DNA of 64,000 bases from Planctomycetota bacterium (GCA_024653775.1 JANLHZ010000037.1:1-64000); one strand, 5' to 3'. Positions 2,771 to 36,976 are shown, numbered from the stretch's first letter. Numbers and translations are program-made. Notes: generated by a model not told the origin, from the letters alone.

Positions 2771-3157
2771 TCCGGCGCGGAGTTAGGAGTCTGAAACTAA
2801 TAAGTGATACATCTCGCATCTCATATTCACGTCATCTTCACATCGCGCTCAATCGTCAAATCCTCATCGGAACTATAGCTACGACTGCGGTTTGACTCAA
2901 TCGCGCAATGCGAATCTGCCGCAACTCTGAGCGCGATTTTGTACAACTTATTAATTTCAGACTCCTTATGGCCAATCGAGTATGCCGTGAAGGTAACTAT
3001 TTGCGCTACGATTCGCAAGTATGGTTTTCATCCCTTTGGACGCGGGATACAATTAGAATAGTTGTCGGCGGTTGTTTTTTAGTCGTTGGCGGGCAAAGGC
3101 TGGCAATCGGAGTTTTGTTCGATCCGAAATTTGAAATCGCAAACTGTGGAGGTCGTT

Positions 3158-4339
3158 ATGTCGAATCCAGTAATCGTTGGTGGAAAAAGAACCGCAATCG
3201 GAAAGTTCCTCGGCGGACTTTCATCGATCGAAGCGCCTCAGCTTGGCGCGGTCGCGATCAAAGCCGCGATTGCGGACGCGGGCATCGAGGCGAGCGCGAT
3301 CGAAGAATGTATTATGGGTAACGTCTGCGGCGCCGGGATAGGGCAGAACCCCGCAAGGCAGGCCGCGAGAGTCGCGGGTCTTCCGGACGCGATCGGCAGC
3401 TTCACCATCAACAAGGTCTGCGGCAGCGGACTGAAGGCTGTGATGCTCGCGGCGCAGGCTATCAAGGCCGGCGACGCAAACGCGATCGTGGCAGGAGGGA
3501 TGGAAAGCATGTCGAACGTGCCGTTCTACGTCAACGGCATCCGTAATGGCGTAAAGATGGGAAACCAGAACCTTATTGACGGTATGATCGTCGACGGACT
3601 CTGGGACAAGTACTACGACTTCCACATGGGTATGACCGGCGAGGCGGTCGCGGAGAAATACGACGTCAGCAGGGAGGCTCAGGACAAGTTCGCCGCTTCG
3701 AGCCACGCGAAGGCCGCGAAGGCGATCGCGGACGGAATCTTCGCGCGGGAGATCGTTTCGGTTTCGATTCCGCAGAGAAAAGGCGATCCGGTGGTTTTCG
3801 ACGTAGATGAAGCCGTGCGCGCGGATACGACTCAGGAGACACTTTCGAAGCTGCGCCCCGCGTTCAAGAAGGACGGGACCGTCACCGCGGGGAACGCGCC
3901 CGGCGTCAATGACGGCGCTGCGGCGCTGGTCGTGATGAGCGAATCGCGCGCGAAGGAACTCGGCGCGCAGCCCTGCGCCCGAATACTCGGCTACGCTACG
4001 GGCGGCGTCGATCCGAAGTGGGTGATGATGGCTCCCGTGGAAGCGATCAAAAACCTGAACAGGAAGCTCGGGACCAAGGTCGGCGATTTCGATCTTTTCG
4101 AGCTGAACGAAGCCTTCAGCGTCCAGGCGCTTGCCTGTACCCGCGAAACCGGCATCGATCCGGAAAAGGTGAATATTCTCGGCGGAGCGGTCGCGCTCGG
4201 ACACCCGATCGGAGCGAGCGGCGCGCGCGTGCTCGTCACGCTGATGAACGCGCTCGAAACCCGCGGCAAAACCCGCGGCGTCGCGGCGCTCTGCCTCGGC
4301 GGAGGCAACGCGGTCGCAATGGCGATCGAACTTGTTTGA
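3158..4339 (+). CDS. acetyl-CoA C-acetyltransferase (thiolase II)
   Basis: Thiolase signatures NKVCGSGLKA, NAPGVNDGAAALVV and GGGNAVAMAIE. A GGAGG ribosome-binding site lies 6 nt upstream of ATG 3158. The 3086 start in the ORF track was rejected. Confidence 0.9.
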   Translation: MSNPVIVGGKRTAIGKFLGGLSSIEAPQLGAVAIKAAIADAGIEASAIEECIMGNVCGAGIGQNPARQAARVAGLPDAIGSFTINKVCGSGLKAVMLAAQAIKAGDANAIVAGGMESMSNVPFYVNGIRNGVKMGNQNLIDGMIVDGLWDKYYDFHMGMTGEAVAEKYDVSREAQDKFAASSHAKAAKAIADGIFAREIVSVSIPQRKGDPVVFDVDEAVRADTTQETLSKLRPAFKKDGTVTAGNAPGVNDGAAALVVMSESRAKELGAQPCARILGYATGGVDPKWVMMAPVEAIKNLNRKLGTKVGDFDLFELNEAFSVQALACTRETGIDPEKVNILGGAVALGHPIGASGARVLVTLMNALETRGKTRGVAALCLGGGNAVAMAIELV

Positions 4340-4412: not shown

Positions 4413-5384
4413 TTAAATCCGTTCACTTGCGGAATCGACTATCAGACCGATCAGGTCGCGGAACGAGAGGCCGAATTTGCCGCAGAGAATCGGAAGGTCC
4501 GAATGCACCGGATTCAGCCCCGCGAGCGGGTTGACCTCGATGAAGTTGATTCGTCCGGTCGCGTCCGCGCGGACGTCGATTCTTCCCGCGTCGCGGCAGC
4601 CGATCGCGCGCCAGGCGCCAAGCGCGACCCCTCCGGCCTCGCGCTGGACCTCCTCGTCCGGAACGTCGTACGTGACTTTGCCCTCGTACTGATCCTTGTT
4701 CGCGAAGCCGTACTGACCGGCCTCCGCGTCTTTTCCGAGGTGTACCTCCATCATCCCGAGAACCCGCGCCTTCCGCCCCGTCCCGCCGATTCCGACGGTG
4801 AACTCCCGCCCCGGAAGATACGTCTCGACGAGCACGCCGAGTTTGTACTCCGCGAGCAGGCGCACGCAAGTCTCGCGCAGTTCCGCGGCGTTCGCGATTC
4901 TCGACTTCGCGCTGATTCCCTTGCCGGTGCCTTCCGCGACTGGTTTTGCGAACAGCGGGTACGGAAGCCGGACGTCCGCGACGTCGTTCGCGCAGGTGAC
5001 GACGTGGAAATCCGCCGTCGGTACGCCTGCGTCCCGCACGACGCGCTTCGTTTGCCCTTTGTGCAGCGTCAGCGCGCTGACAAGCACGTCGCTGAACGTG
5101 TACGGAATCTCGTACGCGTCGAGAAGCGCGGGCACCTGCGCCTCGCGCCCGATGCCGTGCATTCCTTCCGCGATGTTGAAAACGAGGTCCCAGCGCTCTC
5201 CGCTGACGACGCGCTTCGCGAGCGCCTTGAAATTTCCGATGCGATCGACCGTGTGCCCGAGGCTTTCGAGCGCGCCCGCTATCCCGTCGATGGTGTCGGG
5301 CTTGTCGAACTCCGCGGCCTGCTCGCGGGTGTAACCTTCCGCGAGCCAGTCGTAGATCAGGTCGTATGTGAATCCAATAAGCAT
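4413..5384 (-). CDS. ATP-grasp ligase, D-alanine--D-alanine ligase family
   Basis: 323 aa with a Ddl-like N-domain and an ATP-grasp fold (EYLPGREFTVGI, IEVNPLAGL). Confidence 0.8.
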   Translation of the reverse strand: MLIGFTYDLIYDWLAEGYTREQAAEFDKPDTIDGIAGALESLGHTVDRIGNFKALAKRVVSGERWDLVFNIAEGMHGIGREAQVPALLDAYEIPYTFSDVLVSALTLHKGQTKRVVRDAGVPTADFHVVTCANDVADVRLPYPLFAKPVAEGTGKGISAKSRIANAAELRETCVRLLAEYKLGVLVETYLPGREFTVGIGGTGRKARVLGMMEVHLGKDAEAGQYGFANKDQYEGKVTYDVPDEEVQREAGGVALGAWRAIGCRDAGRIDVRADATGRINFIEVNPLAGLNPVHSDLPILCGKFGLSFRDLIGLIVDSASERI

Positions 5385-5405
5385 AGTAGTCAGTAGTCAG
5401 TAGTC
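5385..5405. repeat. heptanucleotide tandem array (AGTAGTC)x3 directly 5' of the ATP-grasp start codon
   Basis: agtagtcagtagtcagtagtc abuts the start codon at 5382-5384. No Shine-Dalgarno sequence is visible. Confidence 0.8.
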
Positions 5406-5497
5406 ATAGAATTAGAAACTTGCTCGAAATTCCGCTGCGCAGACGCGCATAGGCTATAAGAGCATTTTTATTTCCGCGCTGAAGAAATTCGTGGATT

Positions 5498-7075
5498 TCA
5501 GACACTCGCAAGTCTCTTCGAATAGACGAGCTGCGAGTCGCCTTCATCGTAATATTCGTCGAGCGTCGCAACCAGAGTCCAGCCCATCTTGATATAAAAA
5601 CCGCGGGTGCTTTCGTACAGATCTCTCGACGACGTCTGCAGGAACGCGCGCCTGCCGCCCAGGTTCGCGATCTCTTTCTCGGTGCGCTTCATCAGCTTCC
5701 CGCCGACGCCCGCGCCGCGGATCGACTGATCGACTGCGATCCAGTAGAGATCGAAGCTGCCCGCTGCGCCTGGGATCCTGCCGAAGCAGGTGTAGCCCGC
5801 GACGCGCCCTTCGATTTCCGCGAAAACGAACTCGTAGGTGCTCTCGGCGCCTTTGTCGAGCTTTTCCTGCACGAGTTCCACCGCGATATCGATTTCCTCC
5901 GCGTAGAAGTAGCCCGAGCTTGCTACTATCCCGCGCACCGCTTCGAGGTCGTCGGCGCGAACCTCCAGTCGAAATGAAATCTCCGGCGATTTTCGATTTT
6001 CGGAAGGATCGAGGATCGAGGATCGAGGATCGAGTTTTTTCACTTCCGACTCCCGACTTTCGATTCTTGACTTCGGCTCCCTCGACTCTGCTTCCGCGAT
6101 AATCTCCCGCACCACGTCCGCGTACGACAGCCCCCGTCGCTCCGCCGCGGAGATGAACCCTGAGTCGGGCGCGATTCCCGGATTCGCGTTGATTTCGAGC
6201 ACGAATACCCGTCCGCCCTCATCGACTCGAAAATCGACCCGCGAATAGCTCCGCAGTCCGAATATTTCCGCGCAGGACATGGCTGCGCGCCGCAGCTTCG
6301 AAAGCAGGAGCGCGTCCTCCTTCGGAAAATCGAACGTCCGCACGGTCCGGTGATATTCCGGCGCGTCTTCGTTCCACTTCGCGTCGTAGTGCACGATCTT
6401 CAGCTTGTCCGCGTCGTAATCCCTGAACGTCATCTCCGCTATCGGCAGCACCTCGATGACGCCTCGGATGGAAAGCAGCGAGACGTTGAACTCCCGGCCG
6501 TCGATGAACTCTTCGGCGAAGCTGCTCGAATTCGTCTTCTCTTCCGCGCGGCGCACGAGCGCGAGGAGGTCGTCATCGCCTTCGGCCTCGCGGACGCTTT
6601 CGTCATCGATGCCGATGGAGGCGTGCTCCCAGACGCTCTTTCCGATGAACCGCGCCGGAAAGTGAACGTTGCCCGTCAGGCCTTCGCCAGGGACGAACCA
6701 CGCAGGAGTCTGGATCCCGCCCTGGCGCATAATTCGTTTAGAGAAGACTTTATTCGTCGTCGCGTTCAACGATGACGCGCTCTCCCCGGCGTAGGGGATG
6801 CCGAGGTTTTCGAGCAGCGCCGGCGCAAGCGGGAGATAGCAGCCCCTGCCCGCGACGGTGTCGACGATGTTGAAAACGACGTCCGGCTTCAACCTTCGAA
6901 GCTCCGCCTCCGCGCGAGAGACGTCGGTTGTCAGTTCGACGACGATCCCGCGACACCCGATTTCCGCGAGAGCCGCGAGGATCGCTTTCGACGTAATTAC
7001 CGAGTCCTGCTCGTCCGCTCCAGAATTCTTCGCAATAGCGGACATAAGGACCGCCACGAGTTTTTTGTCTGTCAT
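5498..7075 (-). CDS. bifunctional ATP-grasp (Ddl-like) ligase fused to a C-terminal GNAT N-acetyltransferase
   Basis: 525 aa. The N-terminal two-thirds are a Ddl-like ATP-grasp (FVLEINANPG). The C-terminal roughly 150 aa are a GNAT domain with an acetyl-CoA motif (IRGAGVGGKLM). A low-complexity linker joins them. Confidence 0.8.
   Translation of the reverse strand: MTDKKLVAVLMSAIAKNSGADEQDSVITSKAILAALAEIGCRGIVVELTTDVSRAEAELRRLKPDVVFNIVDTVAGRGCYLPLAPALLENLGIPYAGESASSLNATTNKVFSKRIMRQGGIQTPAWFVPGEGLTGNVHFPARFIGKSVWEHASIGIDDESVREAEGDDDLLALVRRAEEKTNSSSFAEEFIDGREFNVSLLSIRGVIEVLPIAEMTFRDYDADKLKIVHYDAKWNEDAPEYHRTVRTFDFPKEDALLLSKLRRAAMSCAEIFGLRSYSRVDFRVDEGGRVFVLEINANPGIAPDSGFISAAERRGLSYADVVREIIAEAESREPKSRIESRESEVKKLDPRSSILDPSENRKSPEISFRLEVRADDLEAVRGIVASSGYFYAEEIDIAVELVQEKLDKGAESTYEFVFAEIEGRVAGYTCFGRIPGAAGSFDLYWIAVDQSIRGAGVGGKLMKRTEKEIANLGGRRAFLQTSSRDLYESTRGFYIKMGWTLVATLDEYYDEGDSQLVYSKRLASV
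6006..6034. repeat. intragenic (GGATCGA)x4 microsatellite in the linker between the ATP-grasp and GNAT domains
   Basis: ggatcgaggatcgaggatcgaggatcgag. The 7-bp unit is not a multiple of 3. Confidence 0.8.
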
Positions 7076-7095
7076 ATCGTTCGTCCCTCACCCGC

Positions 7096-7117
7096 GCCCT
7101 CTCCCGAAGGAGAGGGC
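7096..7117. other. intercistronic hairpin (gccctctcc-cgaa-ggagagggc) between kamA and the ATP-grasp-GNAT gene
   Basis: 9-bp perfect stem seen in sequence, with no T-run after it. Confidence 0.4.
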
Positions 7118-7129
7118 AGGTGGGTTTCG

Positions 7130-8617
7130 CTATGCTCCGAAAGTGAACGAGCACTTAGGCGCGCCGAGGGCGTGCTGGACCGCTGCGGGAGCAGTGTCGG
7201 AGCTGCGGACGGGGACGTCCGCGGTCCCGGGTTTCGGGTCCGGATACGCGTACATCTTGTTCTCGTAGTTCGTGACGTACACGTTCTCTTCGTCCCGACC
7301 GGCCATATAGTTCGGCAGGATCGGAATCTTGCCGCCGCCGCCTGGGGCGTCGATGACGTAATGCGGGACCGCGTATCCCGTCGTGTGGCCGCGGAGACCT
7401 TTTATGATCTCGAGACCGGTTTCGACGGAAGTGCGGAAATGCTCGGAACCCGTTATCGGATCGCACTGGTAGAGATAGTACGGACGAACGCGGATCATAA
7501 GCAGTCCGTGCATCAGCTTCTTCATCGCGTCGACGTTATCGTTCACGCCTTTCAGAAGCACCGTCTGGCTTCCGAGCGGAATCCCCGCGTCCGCAAGCAT
7601 ATTACAGGCGGTGGAGACCTCGGGCGTCAACTCGTCCGGATGCGTGAAGTGGACGCTCATATAGAACGGATGATACTTGCGCAGCATCCGAACGAGCGGC
7701 TTCTTGATCCTCTGCGGCAGCACCACGGGCACTTTCGTACCGATGCGCAGGAACTCGACGTGCTTTATCGCGCGGAGACGCGAAAGCAGGTATTCGATCT
7801 GCGAATCGCCAAGAGTGAGCGGATCGCCGCCGGAAAGGAGGACGTCGCGGATCTCGGGATGTTGCGCGACGTATTCGATTCCCTGGTCGAGGACCGCGCG
7901 GTTGAACGTGCGCTTCTGCCCGCCTCCGACGAAGCGCGAGCGCGTGCAGTAGCGGCAGTACACCGAGCAGAAGTCCGTCGAGAGGAACAGAACACGGTCG
8001 GGATAGCGGTGGACGATGCTCGCGACGGGACTTGTGTGGTCCTCGCCGAGTGGGTCGTCGCTCTCGCCGACGCCTTTGGTCAGTTCGAGCGCTGTTGGAA
8101 TCATCGTCCTTCGGAGCGGATCCTGAGCATCCTTCCCGAAGATCAGGCTCGCGTAGTACGGCGTAATCCCGAGGGGGAAGCCCGTGCTTCCGCCGGCGAA
8201 GAAGTTTCTCTCATCGTCCGTGAGGTCGAAGTAGCGCTCGAGCTGGGAGGAATGTTTTATGCGGTTCCGAAGCTGCCAGGTCCAGTTGTTCCAGCTTTCG
8301 AGGCTGGCGTCCGGGAAGAACCGTTTTTTGAATGCGAGCGCAAGCGGACTGATTTTGTCGGAGCCGTCCTGGTTCGACGAGGTGGAGATGGTGAGGGCGG
8401 CTTCAGAGGCGGAGACGCTGCTTCCCTGGACGAGAAGCGCGGTGTGGGAAGTGGAAGGGAACTCCGCGATTATCGCGGTTTTGGCGCGCGATTTATTGCG
8501 TGCCAGGGTGGCCTTGGGCCTTGATTGAGGAGTTTTCGTTTTTCGGCGCAAATCTGGAGGCTCGGCGGCCTCACGGGTGCCAAACTCGTTATCTTCTCCT
8601 CCTGAGCCTTTACTCAT
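7130..8617 (-). CDS. kamA: L-lysine 2,3-aminomutase (KamA family radical SAM, PLP-dependent) with an atypical roughly 110-aa low-complexity N-terminal extension
   Basis: CSVYCRYCTRSRF radical-SAM motif, GGDPLTLGD, PYYLYQCD and DAPGGGGK. Start chosen at ATG 8617 (MSKGSGG), which has an AGGAAAGG ribosome-binding site. The ORF track start at 8713 lacks one. Confidence 0.85.
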   Translation of the reverse strand: MSKGSGGEDNEFGTREAAEPPDLRRKTKTPQSRPKATLARNKSRAKTAIIAEFPSTSHTALLVQGSSVSASEAALTISTSSNQDGSDKISPLALAFKKRFFPDASLESWNNWTWQLRNRIKHSSQLERYFDLTDDERNFFAGGSTGFPLGITPYYASLIFGKDAQDPLRRTMIPTALELTKGVGESDDPLGEDHTSPVASIVHRYPDRVLFLSTDFCSVYCRYCTRSRFVGGGQKRTFNRAVLDQGIEYVAQHPEIRDVLLSGGDPLTLGDSQIEYLLSRLRAIKHVEFLRIGTKVPVVLPQRIKKPLVRMLRKYHPFYMSVHFTHPDELTPEVSTACNMLADAGIPLGSQTVLLKGVNDNVDAMKKLMHGLLMIRVRPYYLYQCDPITGSEHFRTSVETGLEIIKGLRGHTTGYAVPHYVIDAPGGGGKIPILPNYMAGRDEENVYVTNYENKMYAYPDPKPGTADVPVRSSDTAPAAVQHALGAPKCSFTFGA

Positions 8618-12367: not shown

Positions 12368-12397
12368 AGTAGTCAGTAGTCGGTAGTCAGTGGTCAG
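12368..12397. repeat. heptamer array (AGTAGTC/GGTAGTC/AGTGGTC)x4 in a divergent promoter region
   Basis: Seen in sequence. Same unit as the array at 5385. Confidence 0.8.
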
Positions 12398-12442: not shown

Positions 12443-12474
12443 CTACCCACTCCCTACTCCCTACTCCCTACTCC
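12443..12474. repeat. heptamer array (CTCCCTA)x4, roughly the reverse complement of the AGTAGTC array
   Basis: ctacccactccctactccctactccctactcc. Together with 12368-12397 it forms an imperfect large palindrome around the duplicated tgcagaat sites. Confidence 0.8.
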
Positions 12475-12571: not shown

Positions 12572-14119
12572 ATGGGCATAAACCTCGCTTTCGCTTTGCA
12601 TCACAACGCCGAAGTGCGGCCCCGGAAGACCGCAATAGTTTTCGAGGATACGAATATCAGCTACGCGGAAGCCGGACTGATAGTCCGGAAGTTCGCGAAG
12701 GGACTTCTTGACCTCGGCGTGAAACCGAAGGACAAAGTCGCGCTGCTGTGCCCGAACACGCCGCACTTCCCGCTGGCGTATTACGCGATTCTGTCCATGG
12801 GCGCGACAGTGGTCCCGGTGAACGTCCTTTCGAGCGCCGACGAGATCGCGTACGCCCTCGACGACTCGGACGCCACCGCGCTTATCAGCTTCCAGATGTT
12901 CGCGCAGCAGGCCTCGCAGGGGTTCGCGAAGGTCGACCACACGAAACATCACGTCATTCTGACCAATGCACCCTGGAAGGAAATCCCCGCTGGCGCGATC
13001 GATTCAAGCGTCCTGCTCGCGAAAACCGAAGGCCATCTCGAGTCGATCTACTCCCCGGACTTCGATCAGACCGCGGTGATCCTCTACACCTCCGGAACCA
13101 CCGGAAAGCCGAAGGGCGCGGAACTCACCCACTCGAACCTTTTCGACAACGTCATCGTCTGCACGCACATTCTGCCCATGAACGACTCGTCGAACGTGCT
13201 CGTGGTGCTGCCGCTGTTCCACAGCTTTGGCCAGACCTGCGGTATGAACGCGACCTTCTACCGCGGCGGAACCATCGATCTTATGCCGAGGTTCGACGCG
13301 AAGGCCGTGCTTTCGAGGATCGAGAAGCGCAGGATCAATCTTTTCCACGCGGTGCCCACGATGTACTTCCAGATGATCGAAGCCGCGAAGGAAGGAAACT
13401 ACGACGTCTCTAGCCTCGAATACTGCTGCTCAGGCGGCGCCGCGCTTCCCGAGGCGGTGCTGAAGACCTTCGAGAAGATGTTCGGCGTGACGATGCTCGA
13501 AGGCTACGGACTATCCGAGACCGCGCCGGTCGCGTGTTTCAACCAGCTCCACCGCGAACGAAAGAGCGGAAGCATAGGCGTTCCCGTCTTCGGCGTCGAG
13601 ATGGACATATTCGACGACGAAGGCAACCGCGTCCCCACGGGCGAACGCGGCGAAATCGTAATCAAGGGCCACTGCATAATGAAGGGCTACTATGGCAAGA
13701 TCGAGGAGACGAAAGCCGTGATGACCGAAGACGGCTGGTTCCGCACCGGAGACATCGGAATCCGCGACGCGGAGGGCTACTACTTCATCGTCGATCGCAA
13801 GAAGGAGATGATCATCCGCGGCGGATTCAACGTCTACCCGCGGGAGATCGAGGAATGTCTCTACAAGTATCCGTCCATCGTCGAAGCAGCCTGTATAGGG
13901 CTTCCGGACGAGGAATACGGCGAGGAAGTCCACGCGTACATCGCGTTCGCGCAGGACGCCGGCGCGGAAACCCGCGACATCGCAAACATCGACAAGTACG
14001 CCCGCGAACACCTCGGCAAGCACAAGTATCCGCGGCACTACCACGTTCTTGACGCGCTCCCGAAGGGGCCGACGGGGAAGATTCTCAAGCGGGAACTCAA
14101 GCAGCAGGCGCTGAAGTGA
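12572..14119 (+). CDS. long-chain-fatty-acid--CoA ligase (AMP-dependent synthetase)
   Basis: AMP-binding motif YTSGTTGKPKGA, GYGLSET and a C-terminal PKGPTGKILKREL. Confidence 0.9.
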   Translation: MGINLAFALHHNAEVRPRKTAIVFEDTNISYAEAGLIVRKFAKGLLDLGVKPKDKVALLCPNTPHFPLAYYAILSMGATVVPVNVLSSADEIAYALDDSDATALISFQMFAQQASQGFAKVDHTKHHVILTNAPWKEIPAGAIDSSVLLAKTEGHLESIYSPDFDQTAVILYTSGTTGKPKGAELTHSNLFDNVIVCTHILPMNDSSNVLVVLPLFHSFGQTCGMNATFYRGGTIDLMPRFDAKAVLSRIEKRRINLFHAVPTMYFQMIEAAKEGNYDVSSLEYCCSGGAALPEAVLKTFEKMFGVTMLEGYGLSETAPVACFNQLHRERKSGSIGVPVFGVEMDIFDDEGNRVPTGERGEIVIKGHCIMKGYYGKIEETKAVMTEDGWFRTGDIGIRDAEGYYFIVDRKKEMIIRGGFNVYPREIEECLYKYPSIVEAACIGLPDEEYGEEVHAYIAFAQDAGAETRDIANIDKYAREHLGKHKYPRHYHVLDALPKGPTGKILKRELKQQALK

Positions 14120-14982
14120 ATTACGAATTACGAATTACGAATTGCGAATTGAATTTTGGGAGCGTGTCGCGTAAGCCACGCTTTGGAATACATCGCGTAA
14201 GCGATGCTGAAACACTTACGCGTTTCATTCCATGGAAACACTTACGTGTTTCATTCCACGTACTTCTCTGCTCCGTGTTATTGACGTTCGCGGTCGAAAG
14301 CGCTTCCGCCCAGCAGTCCCCGCCGCCGGACGATGACGCTCCCGAACAGGTCGTACACGAGGTCGGCGTTAACCTCCTTTCGAACGGCGATTTCGAATCC
14401 GCGGACGACGAAGACGACGAGCGACCCGCGGGCTGGGTTCCGTTCGACGGAATCACCGCGTTCTGGGACAGGGAGAACGGCGTCGACGACTCCGGCTGCG
14501 TATTGCTCGACAACACTCCCGAGAAGGACCAGGTGTACGAGGTTTGGGAGCGTCTCCGTCTAGACGGAGACCGCGAGCAGGTTACGGACCTCGTTCCACG
14601 CCAGGGGACGTATTCGACAATCGCGTCCACCTACGGCGCGCTCTGCTGGAGCGAATACGTCGGAGTGGAACCCGATGCGACCTACAAACTCAGCGCGGAC
14701 GTGAAAGCCGTCGGGGTCGACGATCCGGAGAAGCAGCCACTCGTGATGCTCTGGCTGAAAGGATACATCCAGCACCGTGGAAGGCTGAGAGTGATCTACA
14801 AGGGACGCAAGGAGTGTCACGATCTCACGGACGAATTCCAGAATTTCTCGCGGATTTATCATCCTACGAAGCAGACGCCCAGGGTTCACACGATGCGGGT
14901 GATGCTCGTAGCGTACTTCCCCGTTGGATACGCGTGGGTCGATAACGTCGTGCTCGAAAAGATTATCGAAGAGGAGGAATAA
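14116..14982 (+). CDS. hypothetical acidic secreted protein; true start uncertain, probably near 14230-14260
   Basis: A hydrophobic segment (HVLLCSVLLTFAVESASAQQ) acts as a signal peptide. The N-terminal roughly 40 codons of the ORF overlap repeat DNA. Confidence 0.45.
   Translation: MNYELRITNCELNFGSVSRKPRFGIHRVSDAETLTRFIPWKHLRVSFHVLLCSVLLTFAVESASAQQSPPPDDDAPEQVVHEVGVNLLSNGDFESADDEDDERPAGWVPFDGITAFWDRENGVDDSGCVLLDNTPEKDQVYEVWERLRLDGDREQVTDLVPRQGTYSTIASTYGALCWSEYVGVEPDATYKLSADVKAVGVDDPEKQPLVMLWLKGYIQHRGRLRVIYKGRKECHDLTDEFQNFSRIYHPTKQTPRVHTMRVMLVAYFPVGYAWVDNVVLEKIIEEEE
14119..14153. repeat. heptamer array (AATTACG)x4.7 starting at the fadD-like stop codon
   Basis: aattacgaattacgaattacgaattgcgaattgaa. 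Confidence 0.8.
14209..14258. repeat. tandem 26-bp duplication of a hairpin unit (gaaacacTTACGygtttcattcca) plus flanking cgcgtaag/cttacgcg repeats
   Basis: Seen in sequence. Each unit contains gaaacac/gtgtttc inverted arms. Confidence 0.7.
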
Positions 14983-27375: not shown

Positions 27376-27440
27376 AGTCTCAAAATCGCGCTCAGATTTA
27401 TGTTAGGTTCGCTTTGCGCGAGGTAGTCAAACTTTGTCAG
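27376..27440. repeat. RPT-3 partial copy (left half only)
   Basis: tctcaaaatcgcgctcagatttatgttaggttcgctttgcgcgag, abutting the stop of the giant gene. Confidence 0.55.
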
Positions 27441-30400
27441 TTGGTGTTGACACGGTAAACCGTAACCCTTGTAACTGACATCACCTCGCCATCGAGCGTG
27501 AATGCGGTCGGACCGCCGTTCGTGCCTCCGATGATGACCCACTGGACGCTGAGTGTTTCCGCGTCAGTATTCGTTTTATTGTAGTAGAGCGTGCAGGCGA
27601 CCCCGCCGGATTCCTGCTGTCTGTAGTGTCCGGGCGAAAAGCTGTCGAGGGTGGTGCCTCCCACGGTTTCGCGAAGTCTGAACCCGATGTCATAGTCAGA
27701 ATTCTGGTTGCTTTCAGAAACGGTGATATCGACTATGTAAAGCCCAGGCTGAGACGCGGCAATGGCGTTGAGGCTGGCGTCGATGGTGATCCAGTTGGAC
27801 CCAACGTCCTCCGCGGCCGTGCTGCGGTAAGTTGCAAGTACCCTCGCTCCCATTGGCTGCCACTTTATTCCATCCGAGACGTTCAACCCAGTGTCGGTTC
27901 CCGCATTTGTGTTGAAGTTGAGCGAGCCGGCCGGGGCGCCGGCGGCCGGAAGTCCGGCGACGGCTCCAACGCGGATGATTCCACCATCGGTGGAGTTCAG
28001 CGCGTAGTTGAAGGTTCCATCGGTGGTTCCGAGTGCGGCGTCCGCGTTGGCGGTGTTCACAGTGACGGTTCCGGTGAATACGTTGGCGATCGCGCCAATT
28101 TGAGTGTAACCCCCGTCGGTGGTAATTCCGCTGATTCCGGTCATCGCGCCTGTCGCGTCGATATTCCAGTCGCTGGTGTCTATCGCCCCCGTGTCTCCAT
28201 CGTCGCCAAGGGTAAACGCGCCGGCGAACGCGGTCGTTCCTGTTAAGGTCTTGTTTCCTGCGATGCTCTGGTTTCCAGCGGTGATTACAAAGGTTCCCGT
28301 AACGTCCGGAAGCGTGAACGCCTGGTTCGCGGAGAGGAACGATGAATCGAGAGTCGCGGTGAACCCTGTGGAGTTCAGTATCCACGTTGTGGACGTTGTG
28401 CCTGTGTCGGTGTTCTGGGTATGCAGACCACTTGTGAGCGCCAGTGTCCCCGACGCGTCGGGGAGAGTGTATGCCCTCGATGCGGTCAGGACGGCGGTAT
28501 CGAAGGTTGCGGAGTTTCCTCCGGAGTTTATCGCCCACATTGGGGTGGAAGTCCCCGATATGGATCCCCCGGTGATGCTGACCGCGTTCGAATTCTGCGT
28601 GGCCAGGGAACCGAGCCCGAGGTTGGTCCTGGCGTCGCCGGCGTTCGCGGCTCCAGTGCCGCCGTTGGCCACCGCTACCTGTCCGGTGATGCTGATGTCT
28701 GGGTTTGTACCCCCGCTCGATGCGAGCGGCGCGGACGCGGTCACGCCAAGCACCGTGCCGCCTCCCGCGGGTGTGGACCAGCTAAGAGTGCCTAGGCCGT
28801 TGGTGGTCAAAACCTGCGTCGCGATTCCGTCCGCGCTCGGAAGCGTGTAGACAAGGTTGGCTGCGATCGAATTTGCCGCCTTGAACCCGATGTACTCGGA
28901 CCCGTTGGACGCGAGTTCAAGAAAGCGCAACTCCCCGGTATTGCCGGCCGCGGCTCCATAAGGTCCGACTGAAATCGCGTTTTGCGTGGCGAGTCCCGTG
29001 ATCCCCGTAATCGTGTCGTTGACGCCGGAAAGCACAAGAGTTCCCGTGGCATCGGGAAGCGAAAAGACCCTTGCTCCGGTCAGCGTGGCGGCGGAGAGAG
29101 TTCCCGTGTTTCCAGCACTGCTAATTATCCAGGAGGCGGAAGTCGTGCCGATATCCGTGTTCTGGGCATGAAGATCGGTTGTAAGCGCGAAAGTTCCCGA
29201 TGAATCGGGGAGATTGTAAACGCGTCCCGCGGTCAGCACTGCGGAATCGAGGGTCCCCGTGAACCCGCCGGAATTGATTGCCCACGTTGCGGCAGTAGTT
29301 CCGGTGTCGGTGTTTTGAGTGTGCAGATTGGTCAAAAGCGCCAGCGTTCCGGATGCGTCGGGAAGATTGTACGAACGGCTCCCGGTAAGAATAGCGGAAT
29401 CGAAGGTCCCGGAATTTCCGCCGGAGTTGATGACGAAGGTCGCCGTGGAAGTCCCGGAAATCGCTCCTCCGGTAATGCTGACAGCACCGGAATTCTGTGT
29501 TGCCATCGATCCGAGTCCAAAATTGGTTCTGGCGTCGCCGGCGTTCGCGGCTCCTGTGCCGCCGTTCGCGATGGGCACGATTCCGGTGAGGGTAATGTCT
29601 GGCGTGATTCCGCCGCTGGACGAGATGACGCCGGAGCCGGTGACTCCGGTCACTGTCCCGGCGCCGCCCGCGGTCCAGGTCAGATTGCCCGATCCGTCGG
29701 TGGAAAGTATCTCGCCAGGCGCTCCGTCGCCATCCGGAAGGGTGTACATGACGTTCGTCGCCATCGAGTCCGCGGCTTTGAAGCCTGCGTAATTTACTCC
29801 CCCCGCGGCGAGTTCCAGAAAGCGGATTTCCCCGGTGTTCCCCGCAGCCACCCCATAAGGTCCGATGGACAAAGCGCTCTGCGTGGAAAGCCCGGTGATT
29901 CCGGTGATGTTCGTGTTGACGCCGCTTACGACGACTACGCCGCTCAAGTCGGGAAGCGTGTACGACCGGGTACCCGTGAGCGACGCGGTTGAAAATGTCG
30001 CGGAGTTTCCGCCGCTGCCTACAATCCACGACGGGCTGGTTGTGCCAGTATCGGTGTTCTGAACGTGAATGTTGGTCGTAAGCGCGAGCGTTCCCGAAGC
30101 GTCGGGCAGATTGTAAGTGCGGTTTCCCGTCAGCGCGGCGGAATCGAATGTCCCGGAGTTTCCGCCGGAATTGACGGTCCAGTTCGTCTGGGAAGTCCCA
30201 ATGTCGGTGTTTTGCGTGTGGATACTGGTCGTCAGGGCAAGGGTTCCCGACGCATCCGGAAGAGTGTAAACGCGCCCCGCGGTCAGCGCCGCGGAATCGA
30301 GGGCTCCGGTGAACCCGCTGGAATTTATGACCCATGTCGAGGACGTTGTTCCGACGTCCGTATTCTGCGTGTGGATGTTGGATGTGAGCGCCACCGTTCC

Positions 30401-33400
30401 GGATGCGTCTGGAAACGTAATCGTCCGTGGCGCGGTAGGGGAAACGAATTGAAGGGTCGTGTCGCTGGCACCGTCTTCGAAAACGAGACTAGTGCCGAGA
30501 TACATTGTTCGGAACGCGCTTCCATTCAAGCCGAGATCGTATGCGTTGTCCGCGCCGACCGCGATGGCGCCATTCATGGTTCCCCCGGAAAGAGAGAGCA
30601 ATCCCGCGATGTCGCTCGTCAGAGAGACTGTCCCGGAGTTATCCGGAAACAAGATAGCTCTCGCCGAAGTGGATGACGCGGTGATCGTCGTGTCGCTGGC
30701 GCCGTTTTCAAAAACGAGGCTGGTTCCAACGTAGGCGGAGCGAAACGCGGAACCATTCGCGCCAAGATCGACGGAGTTGTTCGCGCTGACCCCGATCGAG
30801 CCGCTCATTACGCCGCCGGATAGTGGAAGGTAGGTTGTAAGGTCATTCGTAAGCGCGAACGTTCCCGAAGCGTCTGGCAGTGTGAAACTCCTGTCGTCCG
30901 TGAGAGTCGCTGTGGTGAACGTACCGGAGTTGCCCGCACTGCCAATTATCCAGGACGCCGAAGTCGTTCCAGTGTCCGTGTTCTGCGTGTGAAGATTGGA
31001 TGTAAGCGCCATGGTTCCGGATGCGTCTGGAAGATTGTAAACGCGCCCCGCGGTGAGAACCGTGGAATCGAGAGTCCCGCCGAAGCCGCCTGAACCAATT
31101 ACCCACGTGGCGGAAGTCGTGCCGGTATCGGTGTTCTGAGTGTGCAGGTTAGACGTGAGCGCCAGGGTTCCGGATGCGTCGGGAAGATTGTACGAACGAC
31201 TGCCCGTGAGTGTCACCGAGTCGAAAGTTCCAGAATTCCCGCCGGAATTTATTACCCAGGTGGAGGTGGAAGTCCCCGATATTGAACCTCCGGTGATGCT
31301 GACCGCGTTCGAATTCTGAGTCGCCATCGATCCGAGGCCGAGGTTCGTTCGCGCTCCAGCGGCGTTCGCTGAACCGGTTCCCCCGTTCGCGAGGGCAACG
31401 ACTCCGGTGAGCGTAATATCTGGGTTCAGCCCTCCGCTCGACGAAATCACGCCAGACCCGGTGACGGAAAGAATTGTTCCCGCGCCGACGGTAGTCCAGG
31501 CAAGGTTTCCAGCGCCGTCCGTCGACAGAATCTCGCCGGGGTCGCCGTCGCCGCTCGGAAGTACGTACAGGACGTCCGTCAGCATCGAATCGGGCGCCTT
31601 GAATGCGGTGAAATTGGTCCCCGCTGCGGAAAGCTCCAGAAATCGGATTTCCCCGGTATTTCCAGGCGCGCCTCCGTACGGCCCCACGGAGATGGCGTTC
31701 TGGGTTTGTAGCCCCGTTAATCCCGTGAGGTTGCTGTTCATTCCGGAAACGACTACTATTCCGCTCTGGTCGGGGAGAGTATACGCGCGCGCGCCTGTCA
31801 ATGAGGCGGTGTCGAACGTCCCGGAGTCGCCAACGCTGTTAATCACCCACGATGCGGCGGTTGTCCCCGTATCGGTATTTTGAGTATGGAGGTTCGAGGT
31901 AAGAGCTATAGTCCCGGAGCTGTCCGGAAGGTTGTATGTCCGGTTTCCTGTAAGCGCGGCGGAATCAAGGGTCCCGGAAAATCCGCTGGACCCAACGATC
32001 CAGGTCGGCTGGGTCGTCCCTGTATCCGTGTTCTGGGTGTGGATATTCGTCGTAAGCGCAATGGTCCCCGATGCGTCTGGCAGGTTGTACGTCCTGTTTC
32101 CCGTAAGCGCGGCGGAATCAAGGGTCCCGGAAAATCCGCTGGACCCAACGATCCAGGTCGGCTGGGTCGTCCCTGTATCCGTATTCTGGGTGTGGATATC
32201 CGTCGTAAGCGCAATGGTCCCCGATGCGTCGGGAAGATTGTACAGACGATCCGCGCCGAGAGACGCCGCGTCGAATGTTCCCGAATTTCCGTTCGAATTG
32301 ATGACGAAGTTCGAGGTGGACGTTCCGTAGACAGCGCCGCCTGTGATGCTGACGGAACTGGCGTTCTGCGTCGCGATGGAGCCTATGCCGAGGTTCGCGC
32401 GGGCGCTTCCGGACGTGCTCGCCCCGGTGCCGCCGCTCGACATTGGGACGATCCCGGAAAGGGTTATCTCCGGCGCGGCTCCGCCAGTGGAAGACAGGAC
32501 ACCGCTCGCTGTGACGCTGGTGACGGTCCCGGCGCCGGGATTTGTCCAGATCAGTCGTCCCGCGCCATCCGTCGAAAGAACCTGATTCGCGGTTCCGTCG
32601 GAGCCTGGGAGAGTGAAAACAAGGCTTGACGACACGCCGTCCGGGCTCTTCAGTCCGATGTAGTCGTTTCCGTTCGAGGCGATTTCCAGGAACCGCAATT
32701 CCCCGGTCTCGCCGTTTCCAACGCCGTAAGGACCGATAACCACCGCGTCTCGCGTCGAAAGCGCGGTAAGACCGGTAATGTCCGCATTGACGCCGATCGA
32801 TGCCGCGCCGAGGTTTATCCTCGCGTTCGATGCGGTCGACGCGCCCGTGCCTCCCGTGGCGATGGACAGCGGCGCGCCGGACCAGAGGGACTCGTCGATA
32901 GCGTTCATAGTTGCAAGCCCGCCGAGGCCAAGGTTTATCCTCGCGTTCGATGCGGTCGACGCGCCCGTGCCGCCCGTGGCGATGGACAGCGGCGCGCCGG
33001 ACCAGAGGGACTCGTCGATGGCGTTCATAGTTGCAAGCCCGCCGAGGCCGAGGTTTGTCCTTGCATCCTGCGCCGACGACGCGCCCGTGCCTCCATAGTC
33101 AACATCCACCACGCCGCTCAGGGTAATGTTCGGAGTCTGTCCGCCGCTGGAACTTAGAGGTCCGGACGCCGTCACGTCCAGAACCGCATCGTCCGAAATT
33201 CCGATGGGCGTTCCGTACACCACTTCAGACACTTCGGATTCTCCTGCGACGTTTATCGCTGTGACGATAAAAACGTAGGTTACACCGTTTACAAGTCCGG
33301 TGACGACTTCCGGACTTACCGCGTTCACTACAGCGGTTCCGTTCTCAGGCGTAACCGACGAACTCGCGCGGTAATAAAGGTTGTATGACGTGGCGTTGAA

Positions 33401-34174
33401 AACTTCCTCCCACACAAGCGTTATCGCTCCGCTGTCGCTTGCTACGATGGACAGCATCGGCGCGGCTGGCGGATCTACCGAAACCGTCGGCCTCAGACTG
33501 ACAAGCGGGGAAGGCAGCGACTCTCCGGAACCATTGAACGCAGTCAGAATGAAGTAATAGTCCACGTCGTTGGTCAGACCTGTCACCACTAGCGGATTGA
33601 CCGCGTCCGGGATGGTAGCCCCGTTCCCCGGAGCGACGTCCGGCTCCATGCTGTAATAGATATTGTATCCGACGGCATTCGAGACGAACTCCCACGCGAG
33701 AAGAACGCTTTCAGTTCCAGCGGACGACGATGAGAACGTCGGAAGCGATGGCGGCAGGACCGACGCCATCGGAGTTGCGATAGCCGTGTTCGATGGAAGA
33801 CTGTCGCCGCCGGCGGATTCAGCGACAACCCTGAACGAATACGAAGCACCATTTGTCAGACCTTGAACGACGAAAACGTTTCTGGTCGTCTTCTGGATTT
33901 TCAGGACTCCGCCTTCAACGGCGTCTCCGTATATCACCCGGTATTGGCTGGCGCCCGCAACTTCGTCCCAGTGGATGGTAACCGTTCCATCTACCGCGGC
34001 GCCCACCTCGACAACCGGCGCGTTAGGCGCGCTGGGCCTGGAAAAGCTTTCCTTGACCGAGCCTCGATTGCATCCGGGAAGCGCCACCACAAAAACAAGC
34101 AGAATCAGGACAAGACGCGCTAGCCCGTTAGCGACGGTCGAAAAGCCTGGATACGTTAATACGCAAAGACGCAT
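27437..34174 (-). CDS. giant (2245 aa) repetitive cell-surface protein: lipoprotein-type signal, three Fn3 domains, then many roughly 70-aa beta-rich repeats
   Basis: N-terminus MRLCVLTYPGFSTVANGLARLVLILLVFVVALPGC. Fn3-like segments (TVTIHWDEV..YRVIYG). Repeats such as TQNTDTGTT..W.I.S.G.SGT.D...LTG.R.YNLPDASGT.ALT and GGTGAS...AR.NLGLG. Confidence 0.75.
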   Translation of the reverse strand: MRLCVLTYPGFSTVANGLARLVLILLVFVVALPGCNRGSVKESFSRPSAPNAPVVEVGAAVDGTVTIHWDEVAGASQYRVIYGDAVEGGVLKIQKTTRNVFVVQGLTNGASYSFRVVAESAGGDSLPSNTAIATPMASVLPPSLPTFSSSSAGTESVLLAWEFVSNAVGYNIYYSMEPDVAPGNGATIPDAVNPLVVTGLTNDVDYYFILTAFNGSGESLPSPLVSLRPTVSVDPPAAPMLSIVASDSGAITLVWEEVFNATSYNLYYRASSSVTPENGTAVVNAVSPEVVTGLVNGVTYVFIVTAINVAGESEVSEVVYGTPIGISDDAVLDVTASGPLSSSGGQTPNITLSGVVDVDYGGTGASSAQDARTNLGLGGLATMNAIDESLWSGAPLSIATGGTGASTASNARINLGLGGLATMNAIDESLWSGAPLSIATGGTGASTASNARINLGAASIGVNADITGLTALSTRDAVVIGPYGVGNGETGELRFLEIASNGNDYIGLKSPDGVSSSLVFTLPGSDGTANQVLSTDGAGRLIWTNPGAGTVTSVTASGVLSSTGGAAPEITLSGIVPMSSGGTGASTSGSARANLGIGSIATQNASSVSITGGAVYGTSTSNFVINSNGNSGTFDAASLGADRLYNLPDASGTIALTTDIHTQNTDTGTTQPTWIVGSSGFSGTLDSAALTGNRTYNLPDASGTIALTTNIHTQNTDTGTTQPTWIVGSSGFSGTLDSAALTGNRTYNLPDSSGTIALTSNLHTQNTDTGTTAASWVINSVGDSGTFDTASLTGARAYTLPDQSGIVVVSGMNSNLTGLTGLQTQNAISVGPYGGAPGNTGEIRFLELSAAGTNFTAFKAPDSMLTDVLYVLPSGDGDPGEILSTDGAGNLAWTTVGAGTILSVTGSGVISSSGGLNPDITLTGVVALANGGTGSANAAGARTNLGLGSMATQNSNAVSITGGSISGTSTSTWVINSGGNSGTFDSVTLTGSRSYNLPDASGTLALTSNLHTQNTDTGTTSATWVIGSGGFGGTLDSTVLTAGRVYNLPDASGTMALTSNLHTQNTDTGTTSASWIIGSAGNSGTFTTATLTDDRSFTLPDASGTFALTNDLTTYLPLSGGVMSGSIGVSANNSVDLGANGSAFRSAYVGTSLVFENGASDTTITASSTSARAILFPDNSGTVSLTSDIAGLLSLSGGTMNGAIAVGADNAYDLGLNGSAFRTMYLGTSLVFEDGASDTTLQFVSPTAPRTITFPDASGTVALTSNIHTQNTDVGTTSSTWVINSSGFTGALDSAALTAGRVYTLPDASGTLALTTSIHTQNTDIGTSQTNWTVNSGGNSGTFDSAALTGNRTYNLPDASGTLALTTNIHVQNTDTGTTSPSWIVGSGGNSATFSTASLTGTRSYTLPDLSGVVVVSGVNTNITGITGLSTQSALSIGPYGVAAGNTGEIRFLELAAGGVNYAGFKAADSMATNVMYTLPDGDGAPGEILSTDGSGNLTWTAGGAGTVTGVTGSGVISSSGGITPDITLTGIVPIANGGTGAANAGDARTNFGLGSMATQNSGAVSITGGAISGTSTATFVINSGGNSGTFDSAILTGSRSYNLPDASGTLALLTNLHTQNTDTGTTAATWAINSGGFTGTLDSAVLTAGRVYNLPDSSGTFALTTDLHAQNTDIGTTSASWIISSAGNTGTLSAATLTGARVFSLPDATGTLVLSGVNDTITGITGLATQNAISVGPYGAAAGNTGELRFLELASNGSEYIGFKAANSIAANLVYTLPSADGIATQVLTTNGLGTLSWSTPAGGGTVLGVTASAPLASSGGTNPDISITGQVAVANGGTGAANAGDARTNLGLGSLATQNSNAVSITGGSISGTSTPMWAINSGGNSATFDTAVLTASRAYTLPDASGTLALTSGLHTQNTDTGTTSTTWILNSTGFTATLDSSFLSANQAFTLPDVTGTFVITAGNQSIAGNKTLTGTTAFAGAFTLGDDGDTGAIDTSDWNIDATGAMTGISGITTDGGYTQIGAIANVFTGTVTVNTANADAALGTTDGTFNYALNSTDGGIIRVGAVAGLPAAGAPAGSLNFNTNAGTDTGLNVSDGIKWQPMGARVLATYRSTAAEDVGSNWITIDASLNAIAASQPGLYIVDITVSESNQNSDYDIGFRLRETVGGTTLDSFSPGHYRQQESGGVACTLYYNKTNTDAETLSVQWVIIGGTNGGPTAFTLDGEVMSVTRVTVYRVNTN
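31930..32235. repeat. near-identical 153-bp tandem duplication inside the giant gene
   Basis: Two units, over 95% identical, in frame. Confidence 0.8.
32811..33100. repeat. 120-bp tandem repeat x2.4 inside the giant gene
   Basis: aggtttatcctcgcgttcgatgcggtcgacgcgcccgtgcc... repeated at 32811, 32931 and 33051. Confidence 0.8.
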
Positions 34175-34509: not shown

Positions 34510-35559
34510 CTATTCGCCTGCGGGAAGCGCGAGCGCGCGCTCCATGTGCTCTGGTCCGGAGAGGTGCGGGTTATGGCACCTCGAGCAGTTGCGCTCGATC
34601 GGCGTGCGGTCGATCTTGCGCTTCCACGCGCCCGGATCGCGGGCGTTCCCGAGGATGACGCGGTTCATCAGCGTGACGTGTTCCGAAGCCGCGCCGTGGC
34701 ACTCGCTGCACCAGATTCCGCGCTGATGGGGAGTCTGCTCGGCGTTCTGGAAGCCGCCCCGGTCTGGCGAGTCGAATCCGGTGGTGTGGCACCGCAGACA
34801 CTTTGGATCGTGGGTGTAGTCGGCCTTCCCTCCAGTAGCGGCGGACGCGGTAACGAGTCTATCGAACGACGTAGCGTGTCTCGAAGCGCCCCAGTCGTTC
34901 ACGCGGTCCTCGTGGCACTTCTTGCATTCGTCCATGGGGACGAACCTCGCCTCCGAAGAAGCCCGCTGCGCGTCCCGCGGAATCGAAGCGTCCGTCCCCG
35001 CGGCCCAGCCGCGGTAGTGGAACTGATCCTGCGGATCGATCCAGGCGAGAGTCTCTTCCGGGGTCTTCAGATGCGGATTATGACAATCGAAGCACGCGCG
35101 GGTCGGATGCTTTTCTATCTGGCGGTTGTGTTCTCCCGGATCGATCGCTCCCTGAACGCGCCTTTGCACCGGAAGCATCAGATCGATGTGAGCGGAACCC
35201 CGGCCGTGGCATTCGCAGCAGCCGACGTCGACGAGGCTTGGAGTCTCTTCGAGACTGCGGAAACCTCCTGTCTGTTTGTATCCTGTCGAGTGACATGCGA
35301 GGCACGCGGGATCGAGTTCCTTGCCCTGGTTCTCGAAATGGCTCGTGAGAGTCTCGTACGCCTGGGCGTGGTCCGACGCGCGCCATGTGCGGTACTCGTC
35401 CACATGGCAGCGTGTACAGAAGTTGCTCGGGACGAACCTCGCGCTTCGAGGAATGTCGCCGTCGCCGGTGGCGCGCCTCGCTTCGAGAGTGATAAACACG
35501 AGGCACATCGTAAGCAGAGCGACAGGAAAGCCCAGGGACACGGTTCTGATCACTTTCAT
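34510..35559 (-). CDS. octaheme c-type cytochrome (8 CxxCH), secreted
   Basis: Signal peptide MKVIRTVSLGFPVALLTMCLVFITLEA. Heme motifs CTRCH, CLACH, CCECH, CFDCH, CKKCH, CLRCH, CSECH and CSRCH. GGGAGAG ribosome-binding site. Confidence 0.85.
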   Translation of the reverse strand: MKVIRTVSLGFPVALLTMCLVFITLEARRATGDGDIPRSARFVPSNFCTRCHVDEYRTWRASDHAQAYETLTSHFENQGKELDPACLACHSTGYKQTGGFRSLEETPSLVDVGCCECHGRGSAHIDLMLPVQRRVQGAIDPGEHNRQIEKHPTRACFDCHNPHLKTPEETLAWIDPQDQFHYRGWAAGTDASIPRDAQRASSEARFVPMDECKKCHEDRVNDWGASRHATSFDRLVTASAATGGKADYTHDPKCLRCHTTGFDSPDRGGFQNAEQTPHQRGIWCSECHGAASEHVTLMNRVILGNARDPGAWKRKIDRTPIERNCSRCHNPHLSGPEHMERALALPAGE

Positions 35560-35597
35560 TTTACTCTCCCAGCATTGCGATTGGCGTTAGCTCCCTG

Positions 35598-36860: not shown

Positions 36861-36935
36861 TCGGCGATATATGTCTTCCTGGAACCCCTCACTTTTTGTT
36901 TCGCGGGTCGCGAAGAGAATTCCCCGGACCCGTGC

Positions 36936-36961: not shown

Positions 36962-36976
36962 GAGCTGAATCTATTA

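Follow-up and report, generated by a model that had tools for sequence, protein, structure and literature searches.

In Ngg, an ATP-grasp peptide ligase and a GNAT are parts of one polypeptide; the small peptide, built from a common amino acid, receives its N-terminal cap from the GNAT. In pyrrolysine biosynthesis, lysine is first rearranged by PylB, a radical-SAM enzyme, and PylC, a ligase of the Ddl-like ATP-grasp type, then couples the rearranged product to an amine. The AblA/AblB system of methanogens (and, by annotation, of some bacteria) is a small operon for an AblA-type lysine 2,3-aminomutase and an acetyl-CoA-dependent GNAT. The closest published statements treat bacterial pairs of kamA and a GNAT gene as AblAB, for example in Pelobacter carbinolicus. 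Here we analyze a three-gene locus in a stretch of 64,000 nucleotides from a Planctomycetota bacterium (GCA_024653775.1, JANLHZ010000037.1:1-64000), referred to as the window. The locus encodes a lysine 2,3-aminomutase (KamA), a fusion of a Ddl-like ATP-grasp ligase (A1) to a GNAT domain, and a second Ddl-like ATP-grasp ligase (ddl2, or A2). On balance, we think it probable that these genes are a self-contained cassette, widespread both vertically and horizontally, for a small amide derived from beta-lysine.

The three open reading frames (ORFs), read from the window sequence, are all on the minus strand. They lie where a first-pass annotation of this DNA had placed them, and their Pfam domains agree with the enzyme types it had named (Table 1).

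We found that KamA has the residue inventory of a lysine 2,3-aminomutase. It is 52% identical over 364 amino acids to the crystallized enzyme of Clostridium subterminale (2a5h). In the alignment, KamA C217/C221/C224 (CxxxCxxC), R226, D386, D423 and K430 correspond to C125/C129/C132, R134, D293, D330 and K337 of the Clostridium enzyme, and these cluster, substrate and pyridoxal phosphate residues are invariant in 40 homologues. We take the roles of the Clostridium residues, from the work on 2a5h, to be binding of the alpha-carboxylate (R134), of the lysine epsilon-ammonium (D293 and D330) and of pyridoxal phosphate (K337). KamA also passed the NCBIfam KamA subfamily model (TIGR00238; 336 bits, cut-off 199). 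Its scores were 466 bits for AblA, 429 for glutamate 2,3-aminomutase, 396 for arginine 2,3-aminomutase and 251 for EpmB. It reached neither the AblA equivalog cut-off (TIGR03820; 466.1 vs 525.4 bits) nor that of EpmB (369 bits). The alignment to TIGR03820 covered only positions 2-363 of 417; KamA falls under the AblA cut-off and passes only the general KamA model because its C-terminal part differs. We rejected a glutamate or arginine 2,3-aminomutase, as the scores were lower and the lysine-binding pair of Asp residues is kept. The earlier call of a lysine 2,3-aminomutase was borne out by these comparisons and, judging by its residues, we take it that KamA makes beta-lysine from free lysine.

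In both ligases the catalytic residues of the ATP-grasp superfamily are kept, and the D-alanine (D-Ala) pocket is lost. Databases name the parts of the cassette 'D-alanine--D-alanine ligase' and 'GNAT family N-acetyltransferase'. We compared 12 ddl2 and 12 A1 sequences with Escherichia coli DdlB, using a reference sequence that was checked by the literature numbering. The residues of the ATP-grasp superfamily for ATP, Mg and the transition state were present: DdlB K97, K144, E148, E187, K215, R255, D257, E270 and N272 were invariant in 12/12 ddl2 and 12/12 A1 sequences. The D-Ala site (the E15/S150/Y216 triad and S281/L282 of DdlB) was not that of a Ddl in either ligase. S150 is T in ddl2 and A in A1; Y216 is deleted in ddl2 and W in A1; L282 is an invariant D (D296) in ddl2 and G in A1. 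S281 was retained in ddl2 and in 8 of the 12 A1 sequences, and an acidic residue was retained one position from E15. Scores against the NCBIfam Ddl subfamily model (145.4 bits for ddl2 and 112.7 for the fusion protein) were far below its cut-off of 243 bits. The first-pass annotation had called both Ddl-like; by these results, neither is a real Ddl. By sequence, ddl2 and A1 are predicted to be active ligases, with intact ATP-grasp residues, that are not D-Ala-D-Ala ligases.

A different reading of the same two proteins is that they are paralogues of the Ddl of peptidoglycan precursor synthesis, making an alternative dipeptide, and that the adjacency to kamA is incidental. This would fit the database name that both carry, and Ddl structures are their best matches in sequence and in fold. 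However, both score below the Ddl cut-off, S150, Y216 and L282 of the D-Ala pocket are not kept, and the link to kamA is tight in many phyla, with overlapping genes and one fusion (below). In addition, the 25 commonest families in the flanks of related loci include neither mur nor other cell-wall families. We consider a role in peptidoglycan synthesis very improbable.

The fusion protein consists of two domains joined by a disordered linker. Pfam placed Dala_Dala_lig_C at residues 145-326 and GNAT at residues 412-493, and AlphaFold2 predicted two confident domains (residues 1-335 and 362-525). The linker between them was hypervariable in length and sequence among 18 family members. The best Foldseek matches of A1 were Ddl structures (template modeling (TM) score about 0.8, normalized to the target). 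The GNAT domain has an R-G-A-G-V-G acetyl-CoA loop and matched the stand-alone GNAT 2r7h (Dde_3044) in sequence (E 4e-31, about 39% identity) and in structure (Foldseek TM 0.98, root-mean-square deviation 0.9 Å). 2r7h, from Desulfovibrio alaskensis G20, is a stand-alone orthologue of the cassette GNAT domain. It is a structural-genomics entry whose deposited name, 'putative D-alanine N-acetyltransferase', is a guess, and the one paper that we found citing it is on an unrelated tRNA-acetylating toxin.

The first-pass annotation had set this GNAT apart from AblB, and we found the same: the isolated domain matched ten NCBIfam families at E<=1 (RimI best, 36 bits), and AblB was not among them. This bears on whether the locus is simply a bacterial version of AblA/AblB that makes plain N-epsilon-acetyl-beta-lysine, the ATP-grasp parts being regulatory, vestigial or for another pathway. 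AblA is the best-scoring model for KamA (466 bits), a GNAT is present, and the published annotation of bacterial pairs such as that of Pelobacter carbinolicus takes this view. It does not account well for a KamA score under the AblA equivalog cut-off (525 bits), for a GNAT that does not match AblB, or for ligases that have kept every catalytic residue. Moreover, the ligases are at least as conserved as the GNAT (52-64% identity for ddl2, about 40% for the fusion protein), and in five related loci kamA and both ligases occur without a matching GNAT next to them. We therefore regard a plain AblA/AblB pathway as quite unlikely.

We found that the three genes stay together in many phyla. Among 84 sampled loci, 59 had all three: 49 in the order kamA, ddl2, fusion gene, and 10 with an extra gene or a split fusion. 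Only in the window did we find the order kamA, fusion gene, ddl2. A search of other genomes for kamA next to a GNAT-ATP-grasp fusion had been proposed with the first-pass annotation; since 59 of the 84 related loci, from many phyla, have this trio side by side, chance does not explain the arrangement. The second ligase, ddl2, is the best-conserved part of the cassette (52-64% identical to its orthologues across phyla), and its family comprises at least 7985 protein clusters (90% identity) at E<=1e-60. More than 120 full-length proteins are related to the fusion protein, at about 40% identity. In a pattern search of one genome per GTDB species, with relatives confirmed, the fusion protein had relatives in at least 585 species-level genomes. 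Hosts among the matches listed were Desulfobacterota (Smithella, Syntrophales, Desulfobacterales), Planctomycetota (Pirellulaceae, Phycisphaerales, Brocadiaceae), Kiritimatiellia, Lentisphaerae, Bacteroidales, Spirochaetota, Acidobacteriota, Aminicenantes, Krumholzibacteria, Clostridia, and Alpha- and Gammaproteobacteria. They are mostly anaerobic bacteria.

The arrangement of the genes is that of an operon. They overlap by 1-4 nucleotides (nt) in Desulfoglaeba alkanexedens (CP040098, positions about 2,017,600-2,021,560), in Shumkonia mesophila and in metagenome contigs, and ddl2 is usually translationally coupled to kamA. In one example, on a 6.7-kb metagenome contig (L086:4077-6407, protein P0284), KamA and a ddl2-type ligase form a single ORF of 776 amino acids, which could be an assembly frameshift. 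The overlaps, the single ORF and the conservation across phyla support the operon-like unit that had been proposed for the window. A promoter and terminator scan found nothing above shuffled background, with no candidate site in either spacer (54 nt and 113 nt), and we rejected internal promoters or terminators that would split the operon. The shorter spacer holds, between the kamA stop and the start of the fusion gene, a hairpin with a perfect 9-bp stem and a TTCG loop (Table 1); it has no T-run and was not in the output of the terminator scan. A search of Rfam at E<=1, upstream of kamA and between the genes, gave just two chance-level matches, and a riboswitch or leader RNA was rejected.

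We looked for further partners by counting Pfam families in 121 flanking ORFs (at least 120 amino acids) of 87 loci. The flanks were mutually unrelated, with 133 families, the most frequent being extra GNATs (five), CorA (three) and YitT (three). Because the flanks are otherwise unrelated, kamA, ddl2 and the fusion gene appear to be sufficient as a unit. Nothing recurred in these ORFs beyond close relatives, and a conserved fourth partner or transporter was rejected. We also rejected an anti-phage defense system, as none of the three proteins matched a PADLOC model. At one locus (L004:10781-17518, a metagenome contig), a separate peptide-ligase cluster adjoins the cassette. It encodes a C39-like peptidase, an RLAN+RimK ATP-grasp protein, a GCS2 carboxylate-amine ligase, an N-formylglutamate amidohydrolase, an MFS transporter and an M14 peptidase.

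The flanks also speak to lysine catabolism, that is, fermentation of lysine through beta-lysine. KamA is the first enzyme of that pathway, and in the window a thiolase gene (3086-4339) adjoins the cassette. The thiolase gene is on the opposite strand, however, and its adjacency is not conserved. Beta-lysine 5,6-aminomutase, diaminohexanoate dehydrogenase and the cleavage enzyme were not among the 25 commonest families in the flanking ORFs, and none of kamDE, kdd, kce and kal was among those families or the immediate neighbors of the cassette in the window. ATP-consuming ligases are ill-suited to a catabolic route. Of the functions we weighed, fermentation seems to us extremely improbable.

KamA has a conserved motif in a disordered N-terminal tail. 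The first-pass annotation had claimed an extension of roughly 110 amino acids. The extension exists, and relative to the Clostridium enzyme it is shorter, about 92 residues: the alignment to 2a5h starts with KamA residue 99 paired with residue 7. AlphaFold2 gave residues 1-83 a predicted local distance difference test (pLDDT) score below 50, and they are predicted to be disordered. Nearly all of 55 cassette KamA orthologues carry such an extension. It opens with an acidic run and an EPP[G/S/D] motif (MESETLFKEEEEPPG in Syntrophales; ...TREAAEPPD in KamA of the window), followed by a variable segment of 50-80 residues. P20 and P21 of KamA were at least 90% conserved in an alignment of homologues. 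An alternative TTG start, at 8551, is downstream of the motif (8552-8563). Because the conserved motif precedes this next possible start codon, kamA starts at the ATG at 8617 or earlier. In Shumkonia mesophila, the annotated start of KamA (409 amino acids) is probably too far downstream: an in-frame Met upstream (L085:6821-7001, JAOTID010000002.1) gives MDDLMAARGEPPS... and so restores the conserved tail motif. The acidic-EPP motif has the look of a short docking motif. PPG and PPD are classic EF-P-dependent stalling motifs, and EPP[G/S/D] might have a translational role.

The tail raises the notion that a protein or peptide is modified. Beta-lysine or another unit would be ligated to the KamA tail, serving as a LysW-like carrier, or to a translation factor, and the GNAT would acetylate the adduct. 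The presence of acidic-EPP[G/S/D] in nearly all 55 orthologues and the predicted disorder of the tail in the window are consistent with this. Two ATP-grasp ligases and a GNAT are also the enzyme set of microviridin-type peptides, and beta-lysylation of elongation factor P (EF-P) is known from the literature, including in Planctomycetota. Graspetides of the microviridin type have a precursor peptide with a conserved core and dedicated ATP-grasp ligases; in the comparison with them the enzyme classes match, and both cassette ligases are full-length and of the Ddl type. Several results argue against protein or peptide modification. By sequence and fold, both ligases are members of the Ddl family, whose substrates are small molecules. 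KamA retains both Asp residues whose function requires the epsilon-ammonium to be free, and its score for EpmB (251 bits) is far from the cut-off. A gene like that for EpmA, the lysyl-tRNA-synthetase paralogue that is the partner of EpmB, was in the flanks of only 3 of the 87 loci, and we rejected a link of the cassette to EF-P. The KamA tail has no conserved Lys, Ser or Thr as partner residues. No recurrent precursor peptide, small ORF, protease or exporter was found among flanking ORFs of at least 120 amino acids (small precursor ORFs were not systematically searched). A protein-directed function is, in our estimate, unlikely.

Some lineages add a fourth gene. About nine loci contain a gene for a protein of ~600 amino acids with a weakly GNAT-like N-terminus and a Hist_deacetyl (PF00850) domain, of the histone-deacetylase/acetylpolyamine-amidohydrolase type (Table 1). 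In five of them, the fusion is split into an ATP-grasp gene and a GNAT gene, and the deacetylase gene sits precisely at the split. No homologue of this deacetylase is in the window. The inserted gene points to acetylation of an aliphatic amine, which would be reversible. Neither the deacetylase nor the acidic-EPP motif of KamA was part of the first-pass annotation.

Our results are most consistent with the following pathway. KamA, as its homology indicates, would turn L-lysine into beta-lysine (3,6-diaminohexanoate). The second ligase, ddl2, which in one case is fused to KamA, would activate a carboxylate as an acyl phosphate and form a first amide bond involving beta-lysine. A1 would make a second amide bond, and the GNAT fused to it would cap a free amino group with acetyl-CoA, most likely the terminal epsilon-amine. 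The predicted product is an N-acetylated di- or tripeptide-like compound of beta-lysine, or a short oligomer. In lineages that encode it, the deacetylase would reverse the acetylation. The acidic-EPP motif on the tail of KamA would most simply be a docking motif for a partner in the pathway. The product is probably an acetylated beta-lysine compound that has not yet been described. Its two most plausible roles are those of a compatible solute and of a polyamine-like cation with a charge adjusted through acetylation; the pairing of an acetylase with a deacetylase suits the cation equally well. A bolder version, which we offer only tentatively and think rather doubtful, is a new and widespread class of beta-lysine metabolite in anaerobic bacteria, for example an acetyl-capped oligo-beta-lysine or beta-lysyl peptide. 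It would act as a peptide-type polyamine or solute, its charge switched by a dedicated acetylase and deacetylase, and be made by a complex of both ligases docked on the acidic-EPP motif of KamA; in its strongest form, the tail would be a carrier arm on which the product grows. The original suggestion, a candidate pathway to an acetylated beta-lysine peptide or solute not described before, remains our best reading of the locus, with the product predicted only.

Some observations weigh against a single beta-lysine amide pathway, or at least against the details given here. Five of the 84 loci have kamA and both ligases with no adjacent GNAT that matches that of the fusion, and three have kamA and the fusion gene without ddl2; the chemistry may thus differ between loci. 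Fresh-water peat, groundwater or digesters are the source of many hosts. Genes for ion transport (TrkH, a Na+/H+ exchanger, MscS, CorA) are neighbors at scattered loci, a hint at osmoadaptation that is anecdotal. For a simple metabolic enzyme, KamA is unusual in having a disordered tail with a conserved motif, which allows a protein-directed role. The product, the co-substrates and the amino group that is acylated are all putative. Full-text literature searches found no description of the cassette; the amidoligase survey of Iyer et al. 2009 (PMC3268129) was outside their coverage.

A new product of the solute or polyamine-like kind, if this is what the cassette makes, would correct a large block of misannotation (at least 7985 clusters of ddl2 and at least 585 genomes with relatives of the fusion protein), serve as a marker metabolite for the host organisms, and join the very few metabolites in primary physiology that are based on beta-amino acids. 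Ecologically central anaerobes are among the hosts: syntrophs (Smithella/Syntrophus), sulfate reducers, Planctomycetota including Brocadiaceae, Kiritimatiellia, Spirochaetota and Bacteroidales. Desulfoglaeba alkanexedens and Shumkonia mesophila are cultured carriers.

Table 1. Features of the cassette, of the window around it, and deacetylase genes of related loci
Feature	Position	Strand	Basis or remark
kamA, lysine 2,3-aminomutase, 495 amino acids counted from the ATG at 8617	7130..8617	-	Pfam Radical_SAM + LAM_C
Disordered N-terminal extension of KamA, about 90 amino acids, not in the Clostridium enzyme	8348..8617	-	Alignment, AlphaFold2
E19-P20-P21-D22 motif after acidic residues, KamA tail	8552..8563	-	Conserved in orthologues
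Spacer between kamA and fusion gene, 54 nt	between 7130 and 7075	-	
GC-rich hairpin GCCCTCTCC-TTCG-GGAGAGGGC in the 54-nt spacer	7096..7117	-	Read from sequence
Fusion gene, Ddl-like ATP-grasp + GNAT	5498..7075	-	Pfam Dala_Dala_lig_C + GNAT
ATP-grasp ligase domain A1, residues 1-335, Ddl fold	6071..7075	-	Pfam PF07478, Foldseek
Disordered interdomain linker, residues 336-361	5993..6070	-	pLDDT about 33
(AGGATCG)x4.3 array within the linker, encodes LDPRSSILDPS	6005..6034	.	Tandem Repeats Finder score 60, 100% matches
GNAT domain, residues 362-525, and stop codon	5498..5992	-	Pfam Acetyltransf_1/7/10
Spacer between fusion gene and ddl2, 113 nt, closing with (AGTAGTC)x3.1 before the ATG	5385..5497	-	
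(AGTAGTC)x3.1 array abutting the ddl2 ATG	5385..5406		Tandem Repeats Finder
ddl2 (A2), second Ddl-like ATP-grasp ligase, 323 amino acids	4413..5384	-	Pfam PF07478, E 4e-24
Imperfect AGTAGTC array	12368-12397		Window
Further heptamer arrays (units ACTCCCT and GAATTAC among the five)	12449-12474, 14118-14150		Window
Deacetylase genes of related loci	L026:3967-5745, L082:7587-9401, L070:4397-6187, L067, L068, L075, L033, L063, L084		

Short tandem arrays in the cassette are a habit of the genome or region. The first-pass annotation had given weight to two 7-nt microsatellites, one in the linker of the fusion protein and one before the ATG of ddl2, and Tandem Repeats Finder confirmed both in these places. 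The weight put on them did not hold. Perfect tandem arrays of at least three copies with periods of 4-12 nt numbered four in the 64-kb window, and all were heptamers. With one imperfect array, the five are confined to 5.3-14.2 kb (within 9 kb), and four of the five are at gene boundaries. Related loci of other organisms, 961 kb in all, contained only one such heptamer array. Because the arrays are clustered in the window and nearly absent from the relatives, we attribute them to the genome or region and not to the cassette; the linker that holds one of them is, in addition, disordered and hypervariable. As for the idea that slippage in the linker would uncouple the two activities, a change by one unit in either direction would indeed end the protein ahead of the GNAT, and a ligase without a fused GNAT occurs naturally in some genomes of the 84-locus sample. 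Reading the microsatellites as operon-specific switches was rejected as the default, since heptamer arrays recur outside the operon, and this analysis found no sign that they regulate it.

The window comes from a 65-kb contig of a Planctomycetes metagenome-assembled genome. The rest of it includes ordinary chromosomal genes (mutS, an aminotransferase gene, an acyl-CoA synthetase gene) and a multihaem cytochrome cluster. In that cluster (34510-42924), genes for multihaem c-type cytochromes (Cytochrome_C554, C7 and c3 families) surround an ORF of 1597 amino acids, which suggests an anaerobic respiratory lifestyle for the host Planctomycete. A minus-strand ORF of 2245 amino acids (27437-34174) contains 153-nt and 120-nt tandem repeats (31859-32243 and 32807-33091; 88-92% identity) and is probably a large repetitive surface protein.

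The cassette resembles four described systems in part. It shares with AblA/AblB the combination, in one small operon, of an aminomutase of the lysine 2,3-aminomutase/AblA type and an acetyl-CoA-dependent GNAT. It differs in that its GNAT is of another family, its KamA has a conserved disordered tail, and it includes two further activities, those of ATP-grasp ligases with intact catalytic residues, of which one is joined to the GNAT; its product is expected to be larger and amide-linked. With the Ddl/VanA family, the ligases share the three-domain fold and the ATP, Mg and transition-state residues, and an acyl-phosphate mechanism can be assumed. Unlike that family, they have replaced D-Ala-site residues (with an invariant Asp in ddl2), score below the family cut-offs, and have kamA as genomic partner instead of mur/fts genes.

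The likeness to the Ngg/AsnO pathway for N-acetylglutaminylglutamine amide (NAGGN), drawn in the first-pass annotation, holds as an analogy in the logic of fusing a ligase to a GNAT, and not as homology. No Ngg-named family was among the 25 best NCBIfam matches of the fusion protein (all Ddl, RimI or GNAT models), and no AsnO or asparagine-synthase-type family was among the 25 commonest in the flanking ORFs. The cassette ligase is of the Ddl type and is placed before the GNAT, and the predicted building block is beta-lysine. With PylB/PylC, the cassette shares a radical-SAM rearrangement of lysine followed by ligation by a Ddl-like ATP-grasp enzyme. In contrast, PylB is a carbon-skeleton mutase and not a 2,3-aminomutase, and the cassette has a GNAT and no PylD; no PylC structure was among the PDB sequence matches at E<=0.01. 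What is new here, by these comparisons, is a predicted beta-lysine/GNAT pathway extended by two Ddl-derived ligases, analogous to the NAGGN and PylB/PylC systems and homologous to neither.

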